A stretch of 64,000 nucleotides of DNA from a bacterium (GCA_037137535.1 JBAXKC010000001.1:160001-224000), one strand, 5' to 3'. Shown: positions 15,569 through 21,226, counted from the first letter of the stretch. Translations and numbers: made by a program. Notes: generated by a model not told the origin, from the letters alone.

Positions 15569-16996
15569 CTATAAAGAATTTACGTCTTGTTTAATACTGT
15601 TTACAAGTTTTTCAAGTTTTTCTTGTGAATCAGTTTCAAAGTAGATTCTTAAAAGTGGTTCTGTTCCGCTTGCACGAACTAAAATCCAGCTTTCGCCATC
15701 TTCCATAATAAACTTAACACCATCAAGTCTGTTAATGCTTTTTACTTTAATTCCGCCAACTTCTGAAGGTGGATTTTCTTTAAACATCTTCATAGCAGCT
15801 TCTTTTGTTTCTTCTGTTAAGTGAAGATCAATTCTATGGTTAATATAATGAGTTCCGATTTCGTTTTTTAAATCTTCAACAAGCTGTGAAAGCGGTTTAC
15901 CTTCATAAGCAACGGCTTCAAGGATTGAAAGATTAGCAAGAATACCGTCTTTTTCGGGAATATGTCCCCAAATGCTTAATCCGCCTGACTCTTCTCCGCC
16001 AACAATTACGTCTTCATTTCTCATTATTTGACCGACATATTTAAAGCCCACAGCTGTTTCATGAACTTTAATATCTCCATTCATTTTAGCAATTTTATCA
16101 ATCATTTGGCTTGTAGCAACTGTTTTTACAACAGAACCTTTTCTGCCTTTATTTTTGATAAGGTGCTTAAAGAGAATTGCAATAACTTCGTTAGGTGTAA
16201 CATATTTCCCTTTATCGTCAACAACACCAAATCTGTCAGCATCACCATCAGTTGAAAAACCAATAGAATCTTTATTTGCTTTAATTAATTCAATTAATTC
16301 ACCCAAAAACTCTTCTTTAGGCTCAGGCATACCGCCACCATAAAGAGGATCAACCCAGTTTTTAATTGTTGTTACATCAAAACCGTGTTCTTTTAAAATC
16401 CCGTCAAAATAGCCTCTTCCTGTTGAGAATAAAGGATCATAGAATACTTTAATGCCTGAAGATTTAATTTTATCAAAGTCAATAAGAGTATTTATCCATT
16501 TAAAATATTCAGGTTTTGGATCAAACTTTTCAGTTGTTCCTTTTTTCTCTGTAACAGCAATAACGCTCTCGTCATCTGCCTGAAGTTTTGCTACGTTTTC
16601 AACAATAACATCAGTAATATCAGGAGTTGCAGGACCTGCATAATCAGGAATATATTTAATTCCGCAATATTCAGGAGGATTATGACTAGCTGTAAACATT
16701 AAAGCACCTGCTGAATTTAAGTTTTTAGCAGCAAATGCAACAACAGGAGTAGGTGCATCCATTGATGTAAGTAAAACGTTAAATCCATGATTATTTAATA
16801 CGTCAGCAGCTCTTTGAGCAAATTTATCCGCTAAGAATCTTGTATCATAGCCAATAATAACAGGCTTAGATGAATCATACGCAGTTTTTATATAAGCAGC
16901 GATAGCTTTTGTAACGAGTTCCACATTGTCAAATGTAAACTGATCAGCAATAATTGCTCTCCAACCATCTGTTCCAAATTTGATCGGTTTTACCAT
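15569..16996 (-). CDS. Phosphoglucomutase/phosphomannomutase family protein
   Basis: FGTDGWR, TASHNP, DGDADRF, GGEESGG, RASGTEPLLRIY. Confidence 0.96.
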   Translation of the reverse strand: MVKPIKFGTDGWRAIIADQFTFDNVELVTKAIAAYIKTAYDSSKPVIIGYDTRFLADKFAQRAADVLNNHGFNVLLTSMDAPTPVVAFAAKNLNSAGALMFTASHNPPEYCGIKYIPDYAGPATPDITDVIVENVAKLQADDESVIAVTEKKGTTEKFDPKPEYFKWINTLIDFDKIKSSGIKVFYDPLFSTGRGYFDGILKEHGFDVTTIKNWVDPLYGGGMPEPKEEFLGELIELIKANKDSIGFSTDGDADRFGVVDDKGKYVTPNEVIAILFKHLIKNKGRKGSVVKTVATSQMIDKIAKMNGDIKVHETAVGFKYVGQIMRNEDVIVGGEESGGLSIWGHIPEKDGILANLSILEAVAYEGKPLSQLVEDLKNEIGTHYINHRIDLHLTEETKEAAMKMFKENPPSEVGGIKVKSINRLDGVKFIMEDGESWILVRASGTEPLLRIYFETDSQEKLEKLVNSIKQDVNSL

Positions 16997-17055
16997 TTTT
17001 GTCCCTCACTTATAAATTTTATTTTATATAACATAGAAAATAATACTAAATAAAT

Positions 17056-17089
17056 ATCCCGTTACAACCTATAAAAGGTTTAACGGGAT
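17056..17089 (-). terminator. Hairpin after the 529-aa gene
   Basis: ATCCCGTTA...TAACGGGAT. Confidence 0.6.
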
Positions 17090-17098
17090 GTCTATAAT

Positions 17099-18688
17099 TT
17101 ATAAGAAAGCTTGAAGTTTTTTCTTTGGCTCGGCTTGTGAAGTAGTGGAATTACAATCTGCATAAGCCTTTAAGCCTGGAGATACACTTGTACCTGTTCT
17201 GTGTTCCCTGAAAATATATTGCAATTTAGGTAATAAATAACCTAGGGAAATACTACATAATGCCATATTTAAAATCGTCATTCCGCCTTTTAATACTTTT
17301 GTCTTAGTAATAAGTGAATCGAGTGCTTTTTCTTCATTAATAGCCTTTCCAGCCTTATTTATAAAGTTACCGACATGATCATATAGATTTTTTAATTCAC
17401 TAACTTCAATAAACTTAGACGGATTTAAAATATGTTTTCCATCTTGCTCTATTACTTCAATAATTCCCATTTTCTGAGCGGTTTTTAGTAATTCATCAGT
17501 AAATTCACCTGTTTTATTATTTAAATTGCCTGTAATAAATTTAATAACTTTTTCTTCATTAAATTTATTGTCTTTATTCGCATTTGCAAATATTTCCACA
17601 GGCTTAAAGTTTTTAAATAAAGCCTTATTATTATCAAGAGCTTTAAAGTCAAGATTAATAGGTAGGTTTATTTTATCTGCAATCGTTGCTAATCCGTCTT
17701 TAATTATTTTTGAAGCAAAGAAGAAAAAGAAAATAATTCCGCCTTCTCTTAAAGCTATTTCAGCTCTTTCATCATTATTTCTTGCATTTAAAACTCTACT
17801 TCCTGAAATTGCAAAATCAACAGCAATCATATTTCCGACAGGATCAATCTGAGCAGAAGCTGCCTGATTTGCTAACTTGTCTATGATTCCGCCAAAAGCA
17901 ACCTGTTTTTTAGAATGTTTTTCCAGTATTGCCGTAAAGGTAGTATTTTTTGCAGGAACTGAAAGTGCCATGCCTTGCTGTAAAGATTGACCTGCAAGAT
18001 TTGGATAATTTGATTTTGTAGAGGGCTCTTTACTTCTTTTTTCTTCAATAAGTTTTTTAGTTAATCCTTGATTAAACTTAGGAAGAGCATAAGCAAGAAA
18101 AGCAAAAGGAACTAAAGTTGAAACAACTAACTTTGCAATATTATAACTCTTATACTTTGATTTATTAAGAACACCAAGTCCTGCTTTAAGAATTTCTTCT
18201 TCTGAAGCATTTTTATTTTTAAGAATGGTTTTTCCTAATTCTATAAATTTATTTTTATTGTCGCCTAAGCCCGCCACAAGTTTTCCATAAGCGTTTTCAT
18301 CTTTAAGATAAGCACTTATTAAATCCTGGTTGATTCCGTGTGAAAAGCATTGAACGCCTTCACTATTTATTTTTTTAAGTGATATATGCGGATTTATATC
18401 CTTGAAAGCCGGTATTAATGATGAAACTTTATCAAAAGCCCATCTACAAGCAGGGATACCGCCAAGCCAGACTACTGAAGTCCCGACTTCTTCTATAAAT
18501 CTTTCTCTTGCCTCATGAACTCCACTTTCTTTGGAGTGTTTGCTTCCCTCATTGTATGCCATAGTAGTTCTGCCGCATACATCAACCATATCTTTGGCTC
18601 CAACCAGCCATAGAGAAGAAGGATTGTCCAGATTGGACATAATAGGCGTAATGACTCTGCCTACTGTTGGAAGTGTTAAATTAATCAT
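17099..18688 (-). CDS. Hypothetical membrane-associated protein with two homologous halves
   Basis: 529-aa ORF, RBS GGAGGGAG; hydrophobic segments; internal duplication (see findings). Confidence 0.8.
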   Translation of the reverse strand: MINLTLPTVGRVITPIMSNLDNPSSLWLVGAKDMVDVCGRTTMAYNEGSKHSKESGVHEARERFIEEVGTSVVWLGGIPACRWAFDKVSSLIPAFKDINPHISLKKINSEGVQCFSHGINQDLISAYLKDENAYGKLVAGLGDNKNKFIELGKTILKNKNASEEEILKAGLGVLNKSKYKSYNIAKLVVSTLVPFAFLAYALPKFNQGLTKKLIEEKRSKEPSTKSNYPNLAGQSLQQGMALSVPAKNTTFTAILEKHSKKQVAFGGIIDKLANQAASAQIDPVGNMIAVDFAISGSRVLNARNNDERAEIALREGGIIFFFFFASKIIKDGLATIADKINLPINLDFKALDNNKALFKNFKPVEIFANANKDNKFNEEKVIKFITGNLNNKTGEFTDELLKTAQKMGIIEVIEQDGKHILNPSKFIEVSELKNLYDHVGNFINKAGKAINEEKALDSLITKTKVLKGGMTILNMALCSISLGYLLPKLQYIFREHRTGTSVSPGLKAYADCNSTTSQAEPKKKLQAFL

Positions 18689-18709
18689 TGATTAGTTCTC
18701 CCTCCAACC

Positions 18710-18796
18710 CTATAATCCCCATAGGAGTGACATCCAATCGACTCTTTTGAGCCAATTGGTACTCCTATTAATTCTAAATAAACTTTCGGTATGCAT
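18710..18796 (-). CDS. Unannotated 28-aa Trp-rich small protein or leader peptide MHTESLFRINRSTNWLKRVDWMSLLWGL
   Basis: Manual translation; GGAG 6 nt before ATG; paralog at 19130-19213 with synonymous codon differences. Confidence 0.75.
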   Translation of the reverse strand: MHTESLFRINRSTNWLKRVDWMSLLWGL

Positions 18797-18891
18797 CGTG
18801 ATCTCCATATATATTAAAAAACATTTTCTTCTTGATTTTTGCTTAATTATTGTTCAAATGTTAATAAATAGAACAAAAATTTAACTTTGAT

Positions 18892-19119
18892 TCATGTAAC
18901 ATCAATAAAAACATGAATACATCGCTTTTTTATCCTAAAAAAATCAATAAAATCAGCAATAATGCACGAAATTATATTTATTTGACTCATATAATGATTA
19001 ATTTTTAATAAATCTTGCTGTTTATCTTTCAAAGAGGTTAAGTTATCTCTCTTTTTTTCAGATAAAAGAGGTTTATTAAATATTAAACTGTCATAGTGTC
19101 TTAACAAATTCATCACCAT
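18892..19119 (-). CDS. Hypothetical 73-75 aa protein
   Basis: AGGAG immediately upstream (true start perhaps ATG 19113); follows the second small ORF. Confidence 0.5.
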   Translation of the reverse strand: MVMNLLRHYDSLIFNKPLLSEKKRDNLTSLKDKQQDLLKINHYMSQINIISCIIADFIDFFRIKKRCIHVFIDVT

Positions 19120-19129
19120 TACTCCTAAA

Positions 19130-19213
19130 TCATAATCCCCAAAGCATATTCATCCAGCTGACTCGTCTGAGCCAGTTTGATGAATTTAATATAATGCTTC
19201 GTAAATTGTACAT
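19130..19213 (-). CDS. Unannotated 27-aa Trp-rich small protein or leader peptide MYNLRSIILNSSNWLRRVSWMNMLWGL
   Basis: Manual translation; AGGA upstream; shares NWLxRVxWMxxLWGL* with 18710-18796. Confidence 0.75.
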   Translation of the reverse strand: MYNLRSIILNSSNWLRRVSWMNMLWGL

Positions 19214-19374
19214 AGGTTTTTATTTCCTGAATTTCTTTTATATGTTCATGTAAAACCATTACAAACAAATTATTGATTGGAAAGATTACACTTATTTACA
19301 AAAGTTAAAATTTAATATTACATTTTAAAAATTATACATGAAAAAATAGAAGTTTCAATAATCTTAATAAAGGC

Positions 19375-20190
19375 TTAATCTATACTGAAAGCAAAATCTT
19401 TACCAAGAACCTTTTCTCTGAGGCTTAGAAGGTCTTTACCATACGCCTTTGTCAGCTCGTCGCCCAGCGTCTGCTCTACATCAAGTAAAAACATATCATG
19501 AATAATAACTTCTTTCATAACAAGGACTATTCCTGGGTTTTTTGTCCATACAGCCTGTGGAGCACCTTTTATGCTTGAAATAACACCTGTTATTCCTTCT
19601 TTATCATCGACAGTTATAACAACCCAACGACCGCCTAAAGAATTTTCAATAGTTCGACCTAATCCATGCTGATAAACCAAGCCAAAATCAAGAGTTACAT
19701 CGTTATATCCGACAACTTTAATATCAACGCCACGGTCATAAGCTTCTTTTAACGGTTTTTCAAGATAAGGCAAATCTTCATGCCATAACTCCAGAAAAAT
19801 TTCACTTTGAGCATGTTCTATCATCTCAATTGCTTTTTTATAAATATTTTTTTCGCCATTCAAATTTAAAATAGGCTGAACAACATTTTCAGATAAATTA
19901 GACAAGTTATCTCTTAAAAAACTAACTGAAGAATTAAAAGCTCTTTCACATCTTGTTAAAAGCTCGTCATGAGGGATAGGAACATAAGTTGCAGGCTTCG
20001 CACCTGTTGCAACAACGACTTGTCGAGTCTCAAGACTTTTTAAAGTATCATAAGCTCTTGCCTGCGGAACTCCAGATTCTTTACTTACTTCATAACCTGT
20101 TGCAGGATTATGTTTTAACAATGCAACATAAACTTTAGCTTCATAAGAATTAAAGCCTAATTCTTTTAAATGTGATAAAATATCATCCAT
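19375..20190 (-). CDS. TrmB family transcriptional regulator
   Basis: LGFNSYEAKVYVALL...ATGYEVSKESGVPQARAYDTL; C-terminal PLD-like effector domain. Confidence 0.92.
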   Translation of the reverse strand: MDDILSHLKELGFNSYEAKVYVALLKHNPATGYEVSKESGVPQARAYDTLKSLETRQVVVATGAKPATYVPIPHDELLTRCERAFNSSVSFLRDNLSNLSENVVQPILNLNGEKNIYKKAIEMIEHAQSEIFLELWHEDLPYLEKPLKEAYDRGVDIKVVGYNDVTLDFGLVYQHGLGRTIENSLGGRWVVITVDDKEGITGVISSIKGAPQAVWTKNPGIVLVMKEVIIHDMFLLDVEQTLGDELTKAYGKDLLSLREKVLGKDFAFSID

Positions 20191-20353
20191 GAGTTCTAAT
20201 AATCTCTTCTCTTTTATTTATTAGTAAAACTAAAATTTTTATTACTATTTACTGCTATAAATAAGAATAACATAAACTTAATTATAACATTTTTGTCAAG
20301 TAATCAATAAAATTTAAAGAAATTCTTAAAATTACATTAACGTAGAAGATAAA

Positions 20354-21226
20354 ATGAATAAAATAAACTCCATTAAACACAAAATATTTGAATATTTAGA
20401 AATGATAAAATTTGAACATACTGTTTTTGCCTTACCCTTTGCCCTTGCAGGTATGCTTCTAGCTAAAAGTACAGGATTTCCTGACATAATAGCTGTTATC
20501 ATGGTCATAACAGCTATGGTAAGCGGAAGGACTGCGGCAATGAGCCTTAATCGACTAATTGACGCAGATATTGACAAACTTAATCCACGCACGCAGGATA
20601 GAGCAATTCCTGCAGGAAAAATCAAAAAAATATCCGCTTTAGTTCTTGCCCTAATAAGTTTCATTATTTTAACACTGGCAACAATGCAATTACCTTCTAT
20701 ATGCCTTAAATTACTACCTATGGCGATAGGGATATTGATTCTATATTCTTATACCAAAAGATTTACAGAATTATCGCATTTTGTCCTTGGTGCAGCCCTT
20801 GGAGCAGCAGCAACAGGAGGATGGATTGCCGTAAGCGGAGCATTAACTATACCTTCCGTTCTATGGGGAATAGCAGTAATGTTTTGGGTGGCAGGTTTTG
20901 ATATAATTTACGCTATTCAAGATATTGACTTTGACAGAGAACACAAGCTATTCAGCATTCCTGCCAAATTAGGAGCAAAAAATTCGCTGAGATTATCAAA
21001 ATTTTTACATGTTCTAACTGTATTAATTTTAGCCATAATTTCTTTTATCTATCCTCAAGGCTTCTTTTATTACTTTGCAATTGCCTTTATTGCTGTTATG
21101 TTTATATATGAACACTCTCTAATCAATGAGAATGATTTAAAAAAAATCAATATTGCTTTTTTTAATGTAAACGGTTACGTTAGTATTGCAGTATTTATAT
21201 TTGTACTTCTGAATAAACTATTTTAG
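20354..21226 (+). CDS. UbiA-family prenyltransferase (MqnP-like)
   Basis: KFEHTVFALPFA, NRLIDADIDKLNPRT, GFDIIYAIQDIDFD, AFFNVNG. Confidence 0.9.
   Translation: MNKINSIKHKIFEYLEMIKFEHTVFALPFALAGMLLAKSTGFPDIIAVIMVITAMVSGRTAAMSLNRLIDADIDKLNPRTQDRAIPAGKIKKISALVLALISFIILTLATMQLPSICLKLLPMAIGILILYSYTKRFTELSHFVLGAALGAAATGGWIAVSGALTIPSVLWGIAVMFWVAGFDIIYAIQDIDFDREHKLFSIPAKLGAKNSLRLSKFLHVLTVLILAIISFIYPQGFFYYFAIAFIAVMFIYEHSLINENDLKKINIAFFNVNGYVSIAVFIFVLLNKLF

Follow-up and report, generated by a model that had tools for sequence, protein, structure and literature searches.

To our knowledge, few bacterial leader peptides with a sequence-dependent function are known, namely TnaC, SpeFL, PepNL, SecM and the Erm and Cat leaders, with model Proteobacteria and Firmicutes as the source of the majority. 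Described here is a further family of leaders, which came to light through two micro-ORFs (ORF, open reading frame), A and B, on the minus strand of a bacterial DNA stretch of 64,000 nucleotides (nt; GCA_037137535.1 JBAXKC010000001.1:160001-224000), hereafter the window, in which all positions below are counted; micro-ORF B directly precedes the gene for an uncharacterised 529-amino-acid (aa) protein of Melainabacteria. The leader family is new and falls within an already known class, that of sequence-specific leader peptides; computationally its definition is good, but its mechanism is putative.

In TnaC, a conserved Trp, a conserved Asp and a terminal Pro stand before the stop codon of a leader located upstream of tnaA. 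PepNL, with 14 codons, is reported to need no inducer for arrest at its stop codon (PMC11890864). For SpeFL, also called orf34, two reports describe two consecutive rare Arg codons, a hairpin at the 3' end of the ORF and arrest at the stop codon, which across species may be any of the three (PMC6386406; bioRxiv 10.1101/604074), and the second of these defines SpeFL by its HIRRxxH recognition loop (bioRxiv 10.1101/604074). With some reservation, we lean towards regarding the new family as cis-acting leaders that work like SpeFL/orf34 and stand outside that family, ribosome arrest being the putative part of this reading.

Two micro-ORFs upstream of an uncharacterised gene

The features on which the argument turns are the following.

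19130..19213, minus strand: micro-ORF A, 27 codons and TGA, encoding MYNLRSIILNSSNWLRRVSWMNMLWGL-stop, a divergent MNLIWGL-stop leader
18710..18796, minus strand: micro-ORF B, 28 codons and TAG, encoding MHTESLFRINRSTNWLKRVDWMSLLWGL-stop, directly preceding the 529-aa gene
17099..18688, minus strand: gene for the 529-aa protein, of an uncharacterised Melainabacteria family with several copies per genome
18686..18704, minus strand: Shine-Dalgarno (SD) sequence GGAGGGAG and ATG of the 529-aa gene
19140..19201, minus strand: hairpin A, 22 predicted pairs in three stacked stems
18721..18768, minus strand: hairpin B, predicted, with outer stem AUAGGAGU/ACUCCUAU, an 11-bp inner stem and an AAAA loop

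A preliminary description, made from the sequence of the window, had reported the two micro-ORFs as paralogous, Trp-rich, each in a hairpin and each directly upstream of a gene. Their positions, start signals, spacing and four synonymous differences are as it gave them. GGAG stands 6 nt 5' of the ATG of micro-ORF B and AGGAAA 11 nt 5' of that of micro-ORF A; the stop codon of B is followed after 21 nt by the start of the 529-aa ORF, and that of A after 10 nt by the start of a 75-aa ORF. The claim of a gene directly downstream holds for copy B, whose 529-aa neighbour is conserved, but is not supported for copy A, whose neighbour is an orphan ORF and may not be a gene. Over their last 15 codons the two differ synonymously (AAC/AAT, CGA/AGA, CTT/CTA and TGA/TAG, A before B) as well as by four non-synonymous codon changes, and a 24-nt DNA pattern common to both occurs twice in the 2.9-Mb genome, its reversed control not at all.

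Each micro-ORF does lie within a predicted hairpin (pairs 19201-19140 and 18768-18721). When the 146-nt context of each copy was folded, none of 200 shuffles folded as well as copy A (z -4.92) and one of 200 was as good as copy B (z -2.37). The 5' arm of hairpin A begins at a single CGA (Arg) codon and its 3' arm ends within the last Trp codon; the 5' arm of hairpin B starts just before an AGG (Arg) codon and its 3' arm ends just before the last Trp codon. The inner stem GGCUC-NNNN-GAGUC of the two hairpins contains one compensatory pair, C-G versus U-A.

A conserved peptide before one gene family

Searched with the degenerate pattern M-N-x-x-W-G-L-stop, which micro-ORF A fits, the genomes of the order returned 146 matches in 142 of 201 genomes, usually one per genome, against 2 for the reversed pattern. 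All matches end in TAA, TAG or TGA; the pattern also permitted TGG at the stop position, and no match used it. Family anatomy was counted on 78 distinct copies. Their Asn codons are AAC (42) or AAT (35), their Gly codons GGT (29), GGC (27), GGG (13) or GGA (9), the final Leu is encoded by TTG (37), CTA (17), TTA (11), CTT (7) or CTG (6), and the stop codons are TAG (35), TAA (35) or TGA (8). Since the Gly, Leu-family and stop codons vary in this way, it is on the peptide that selection acts, to judge from the sequences, as the preliminary description had proposed from the synonymous differences between its two copies. It had also named a lack of homologues with preserved frame, start and stop as grounds for giving the proposal up, and the opposite was found: among 80 distinct pattern matches with sufficient upstream sequence, 74 have an in-frame ATG with an SD that yields 12-45 codons, compared with 1 of 160 in the other two frames, and three of the six remaining copies are 55-57-codon versions from one genus.

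A profile of the 78 peptides was found in 148 of the 169 genomes of the order's largest family and in both genomes of another family. It hit two places in the window genome; copy B is among the matches listed (E 7.3e-7), and the second is taken to be copy A. In about 229 genomes from the phylum's other families there was one marginal match (E 0.006), so that among the genomes searched the leader family is confined to one order of Melainabacteria.

A search of related genomes for the peptide pattern, with the downstream genes recorded, had been suggested in the preliminary description, and it leads to a single gene family: for 76 of the 78 copies, the ORF that follows is recognised by an N-terminal profile made for the 529-aa family (E <= 2.2e-11). 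The profile was built on the first 38 copies, and the later 38 served as an independent test, in which 37 match. The family homologue starts within about 80 nt of the leader, the gaps measuring 2-80 nt once starts are refined, with a 1-nt overlap in one copy. The two copies without a family gene next to them are L137, in a genome of another family, and window copy A. Conversely, 141 of the 142 pattern-positive genomes also contain the protein family, and only 1 of 18 genomes without a match to the protein family contains the pattern. Terminators of the preceding gene are visible just 5' of several leaders.

Nothing resembling this family was found in the collections searched, in keeping with the earlier suggestion that it is undescribed. 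Of the 78 micro-ORFs, 72 could be scanned against Pfam (six are too short), and none matches any family credibly; Rfam gave no match over the hairpins at E <= 10 (window 17000-21000) and none at E <= 0.1 in 10 relatives' loci; and searches of main article texts, for leader peptides in Melainabacteria and for small proteins, upstream ORFs, attenuation, riboswitches and leaders in Gastranaerophilales, brought up nothing on the leader family among the papers listed; the paper listed for Melainabacteria concerns an unrelated RiPP pathway.

The protein family that follows the leaders has matches in 183 of the 201 genomes, at 3-6 copies per genome. The 529-aa protein itself has no Pfam match and no name in any source, and its relatives in a protein atlas are exclusively hypothetical proteins of Melainabacteria. 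Relatives that are 52-61% identical exist in protein listings; of two scans of metagenome contigs for close relatives, the first came back empty and the second yielded a single locus (33% identity). A membrane location is putative and read from the hydrophobic helices. An AlphaFold2 model of a 454-aa homologue (L058; pLDDT 85.9, pTM 0.79) is all-helical, with two halves that look similar by eye, and resembles no solved structure convincingly (at best, Foldseek gave E 0.42 and VIA gave Z 5.7, the latter no better than noise for helical proteins). A complex prediction that combined a 33-aa leader peptide with this 454-aa neighbour scored 0.00 in both runs. Compared with L058, 35 of 39 downstream proteins are 22-54% identical, and the N-terminus is their best-conserved part. 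That the last eight residues of the leaders are near-fixed despite such divergent downstream proteins suggests that their partner is itself highly conserved, as the ribosome is.

Anatomy of the leaders

The leaders are 15-56 codons long, most commonly 27 (28/78), and share the C-terminal consensus (V)(K/R)LMNL(I/V)WGL, which is followed at once by the stop codon, whichever of the three it is. Among the 78 copies, V occurs 51 times at -10, K or R 61 times at -9 and L 59 times at -8; within the motif proper, M is found in 72, N in 77 and L in 71. Outside the C-terminal motif the peptides are basic (28% Lys+Arg, 3% Asp+Glu). A single Trp is present in 73 of the 78 members. The W-x5-W-x4-W spacing by which the two window peptides had been called Trp-rich is thus specific to the window genome, and the analogy with Trp sensing by TrpL or TnaC, drawn from it, has no basis at the level of the family because 73 of the 78 members have one Trp.

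Two consecutive Arg residues stand in the N-terminal part of 53 of the 78 copies, with the consensus x-N-(I/L)-R-R-N/H, and 97 of the 106 codons of these pairs are CGA, while the other Arg residues of the micro-ORFs are mostly encoded by AGA. In the long ORFs of contig 1 of the window genome CGA is rare, accounting for 114 of 2158 Arg codons. The tRNA-Arg set of this genome has only the anticodons ACG, CCG and TCT, so CGA must be read by inosine-A wobble. Inosine-A wobble decoding of CGA is slow.

The bases right after CGA-CGA pair with bases 0-5 nt past the stop codon, forming a predicted helix, P1, that encloses the ORF. For each locus whose first 16 residues include an R[RQHS] match and whose gap is 20 nt or more, the P1 duplex was compared with 300 shuffles of its own; it is better than they are in 39 of 61 loci at p <= 0.05 and in 27 of 61 at p <= 0.01, although these loci are related and so are not independent trials. 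The 39 loci have 37 distinct predicted 5' arm strings, many of them near-identical, of which about 14 are clearly different by eye; when arms were compared across loci, 20 of 74 cognate pairs fell under the 5th percentile of non-cognate pairs. RNAalifold found no consensus structure in 38 leaders, because the 3' arm of P1 is not column-aligned.

How do the window copies relate to this scheme? They keep Val at -10, M-N at -7/-6 (M-S in copy B) and the W-G-L end, have Trp instead of Leu at -8, and carry two extra Trp codons each. In place of the Arg-Arg pair, copy A has a single CGA and copy B an AGG, and their P1-like hairpin closes within the ORF, not after the stop codon, around the extra inner stem.

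Several variants deserve separate mention. In one genus (L106-L108) the leaders reach 55-57 codons through an EEAGGRQGRL-like insert between Arg-Arg and KAKAP...LMNLAWGL-stop, with the family gene still within about 30 nt. A conserved K-A-N-A-P segment in one aligned group of leaders has Ala-Pro codons (GCC CCN) that are complementary to the Trp-Gly codons (UGG GGC) and paired with them in many predicted folds; this segment may be under both RNA and protein constraint. In the DNA 5' of the best 29 homologues of the 529-aa protein, 13 leaders end in ...MN(L/M)xWGL-stop, 3 in ILNIF-stop and 13 are His-rich. The ILNIF-stop leaders (L009, L013 and L022, from two other families of the order; e.g. 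MGQSRNQRKFIFRRIMGVILNIF-stop) precede closer homologues of the 529-aa protein, and from the sequences the core common to WGL and ILNIF leaders may be (L/M)-N-(L/I)-(I/F).

Comparison with known leader systems

SpeFL, the leader of speF in gamma-proteobacteria (PF10940, DUF2618), is one of the closest known systems. Both are short leaders, translated in SpeFL (34 codons) and to all appearance here too; both have an I-R-R core in consecutive rare Arg codons; both have a hydrophobic C-terminus, which in SpeFL blocks release at the stop codon, and use all three stops; and in both an mRNA hairpin takes in the 3' end of the ORF, the pace of the ribosome selecting between alternative folds in SpeFL. 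The two consecutive rare Arg codons are found in the family (53/78) but not in the window copies. Membership of the SpeFL family is nevertheless contradicted by several differences: none of the 72 scanned micro-ORFs matches PF10940 at E <= 10, and its best score in the window genome, 12.6 bits against a cut-off of 25, falls at an unrelated place; the motif is N-I-R-R-N, without the flanking His pair of HIRRxxH; the gap to the main ORF is 2-80 nt, compared with the 257 nt and Rho site reported for SpeFL; and the downstream gene encodes a putative membrane protein of no known family rather than ornithine decarboxylase.

With TnaC and PepNL the new family shares the general layout of upstream ORFs of 15-30 codons with conserved residues near the C-terminus, which in TnaC and PepNL are reported to act at termination. 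There is no shared motif, and neither tnaA nor pepN lies downstream of the new leaders. The TnaC motif is absent: all 78 copies end in W-G-L, none in Pro, and the downstream gene has no Pfam family. PepNL was reported with tRNA-Asp in the P site (PMC11890864), whereas all 78 members of the new family end in Leu; PepNL reportedly depends on UGA, whereas the identity of the stop codon is free here.

Attenuators of the hisL/trpL type resemble the new leaders in that a translated leader couples the position of the ribosome to RNA helices. They differ in that the WGL leaders have no run of a single amino acid and in that the sequence of the peptide as such is conserved. Neither micro-ORF is separated from the next start by a terminator-like site, the only two in 16900-19500 both falling within the span of the 529-aa gene, and no T-run was seen in the folded WGL-type leaders.

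Leaders of sister paralogues

Other members of the same gene family carry leaders of a more familiar kind. All 12 sister-paralogue loci examined have His-rich leader ORFs with 4-6 His, and 10 of the 12 also have, 32-64 nt 5' of the gene, a T-run behind a hairpin with a folding energy of -16 to -18 kcal/mol. Such an arrangement looks like a classical histidine attenuator placed before a non-biosynthetic gene; the His-rich leaders have no Rfam match. These loci are L015, L017, L023-L025 and L027-L033, with L073 and L083 as further His-leader loci outside the 12-locus hairpin test; the proteins of this subfamily have the N-terminus ..NIISAIGNxSSVYPLxxRDCG.., and their leader is, for example, MENQILKLHHHHHHSDLRRAVNW-stop. 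In the window genome itself, although outside the window, the gene of a 677-aa distant paralogue (contig C4, about 6,740, minus strand; L066) follows a Met/Cys-rich micro-ORF, MKTNQPINFCKNMLMMFMMCCCMMHVLV-stop, and a terminator-like hairpin with a T-run. Sister paralogues of the same gene family thus carry what look like classical leader attenuators, which provides supporting context for reading the WGL micro-ORFs as leaders.

A possible mechanism and its difficulties

If the new leaders work like SpeFL/orf34, both micro-ORFs would be translated as cis-acting leader ORFs, and the conserved C-terminal nascent peptide would presumably delay or prevent release at the stop codon from within the ribosome. 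Ribosome pace would be set, or Arg-tRNA sensed, by the slow CGA-CGA pair, for which the window genome has only the inosine-wobble tRNA-Arg(ACG). The position of the ribosome could then decide whether P1 forms, its 5' arm being covered by a ribosome at CGA-CGA and its 3' arm by one at the stop codon, and it could also set the fate of the main start, which would be occluded, re-initiated on or kept transcribed. It is conceivable that the outcome depends on the gap: at 2-6 nt a ribosome parked at the stop codon would bring about occlusion or re-initiation, whereas at longer gaps it would act on transcription, and the fate of P1 and of the RNA may be affected as well. By analogy, the logic proposed would be that of SpeFL/orf34, TnaC and PepNL.

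Several observations weigh against this reading. The probability that the SD and AUG of the main ORF are unpaired does not shift with the modelled position of the ribosome: its mean is 0.60 in free RNA (76 loci), 0.63 with the ribosome at Arg-Arg versus 0.66 free (same 53 loci), and 0.66 with the ribosome at the stop codon versus 0.63 free (same 65 loci). The simplest mechanism, in which the SD would be unmasked, is therefore not supported, and this model was set aside for want of a consistent change between ribosome states. Minimal leaders of 15-18 codons (for example MNKHSKKLMNLIWGL-stop, 2-4 nt 5' of the main ATG) and the window genome's own copies have neither Arg-Arg nor P1, and so only the C-terminal peptide and its proximity to the gene are universal. 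Where Arg-Arg is present, its distance to the C-terminus ranges from about 18 to 40 residues, which is not easily reconciled with a fixed ligand pocket of the exit tunnel. The invariance of W-G-L-stop is partly a matter of ascertainment, since that string was built into the search patterns, and the three leaders that were found through the downstream gene and end in ILNIF-stop make WGL common rather than universal. RNA-library contigs, which are short identical matches without transcript ends or strand information and are possibly derived from DNA, cover only 18481-18712 and 17490-17676. Finally, a conserved amphipathic C-terminus is equally expected of a small partner protein.

Another candidate, a fusion of the leader to the main ORF by bypass, readthrough or frameshift, was rejected, the gaps showing no consistent frame; their lengths include 2, 4, 6, 21, 25, 31, 32 and 46-50 nt.

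Alternative explanations

Might the micro-ORF instead encode a functional small protein, with a basic N-terminus and an amphipathic C-terminal helix, that is translationally coupled to the downstream membrane protein and binds or assists it? Made in a fixed ratio with that protein, it could serve as a subunit, an assembly factor or a regulator. The preliminary description had offered such a partner beside an arrest or attenuator leader, and these two are still the live readings; we regard the partner protein as possible, though rather unlikely. The strong conservation of the peptide together with its strict adjacency to one gene family (76/78) is what such a partner would show, the gaps of 2-6 nt in some genera are typical of coupled genes, and the main protein is best conserved at its N-terminus. 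Single-pass partners of the KdpF/AcrZ type have a hydrophobic helix long enough to cross the membrane. In the new peptides, however, the longest hydrophobic stretch is the C-terminus of 8-9 residues, well short of transmembrane length, and some leaders comprise only 15 codons. Nor would a plain protein gene be expected to conserve CGA-CGA at the nucleotide level or to be accompanied by a complementary helix that varies with lineage; the near-invariance of the C-terminus is likewise hard to square with a partner, given that most of the downstream proteins compared are only 22-54% identical, and the sister paralogues bear ordinary regulatory leaders.

Less probable still, indeed improbable in our view, is a plain starvation-sensing leader in which only the regulatory codons (CGA-CGA in the family, three Trp in the window copies) and the RNA helices matter and the peptide has no role. 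The conservation of CGA-CGA, the location of the 5' arm of P1 where a ribosome stalled at that pair would sit, and the His-rich and Met/Cys-rich leaders of the paralogues all agree with it, as does the report that the two Arg codons of orf34 sense arginine (PMC6386406). But it leaves unexplained why the C-terminal peptide is conserved while its codons change synonymously; in the window, leader and gene are not separated by any terminator-like site; and the minimal versions have no Arg-Arg, while 73 of the 78 members have one Trp.

That the locus carries a riboswitch-like, RNA-only cis-regulatory element whose reading frame is incidental is barely credible: the stable hairpins in A and B, their one compensatory pair and the P1 of relatives would suit such an element, but third-position variation, switching between TTR and CTN Leu codons, the use of all three stops, in-frame ATG and SD in 74/80 copies versus 1/160 in other frames, the absence from 60 relatives of the window's 24-nt motif (save one chance match with 2 mismatches inside a plus-strand gene) and the lack of an Rfam match all speak against it.

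Genomic setting of the window copies

Further features of the locus are a promoter-like site and the ORF between the two micro-ORFs.

19331..19358, minus strand: sigma-70-like promoter, TTGAAA, 16 nt, TATAAT, upstream of micro-ORF A
18892..19119, minus strand: orphan ORF of 75 codons between A and B, with GGAG before its third codon (ATG)

The promoter agrees with the consensus at 11 of 12 positions and is the best of 10 promoter-like sites in 16900-19500, a number not above that in shuffles (mean 12.0), so that it counts as a consensus match only; it is likely the start of the leader transcript. No credible homologue of the 75-aa ORF turned up in 200 genomes of the order (best per-genome E 7.9e-4), where its weak matches are scattered and interrupted by stops, and a collection of 5.8 billion proteins returned only the ORF itself. 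Probably it is either spacer or a gene peculiar to this lineage; it may not be a gene at all. A remnant of a 529-aa family gene between A and B was also considered and dropped, no trace being present in any frame. The simplest reading of A and B is a tandem duplicated leader on one transcript.

The preliminary description had drawn attention to a TrmB regulator upstream. The upstream gene on the same strand is indeed of the TrmB family (PF01978, E 2.3e-21), but the link is not conserved: in none of 100 loci from relatives, each taken with about 1.5 kb of flank, was TrmB or phosphoglucomutase found beside the leader, and they are therefore not part of the unit.

The sequencing runs that hold window DNA are labelled as freshwater and lake-water metagenomes. 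Positions 19036-19240, which include micro-ORF A, and 19388-19500 recur as identical contig pieces in a lake-water metagenome run from a different study, so the organism, or a strain very close to it, occurs in more than a single sample.

Significance

The new leader family comes from uncultured Melainabacteria, and its signature is unusually clean, with an invariant C-terminal peptide beside a freely varying stop codon, a rare-codon pair conserved at the nucleotide level and a helix around the ORF that varies with lineage, all of which recommends it for cell-free arrest assays. To the extent that sequence allows, the leaders also mark an abundant protein family of unknown fold and function as one that is probably under tight translational regulation, which would be the first functional clue to it. 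It is tempting to go one step further and to suppose, quite tentatively, that (V)KLMNLIWGL is a sensory arrest peptide, halting release at any of the stop codons when it responds to a metabolite or to Arg-tRNA supply, and that the whole family of helical membrane proteins has been wired, paralogue by paralogue, to leaders that read different amino acids (His-rich, Met/Cys-rich and Arg-Arg/WGL). If true, these bacteria would possess an unrecognised set of amino-acid-responsive membrane proteins.

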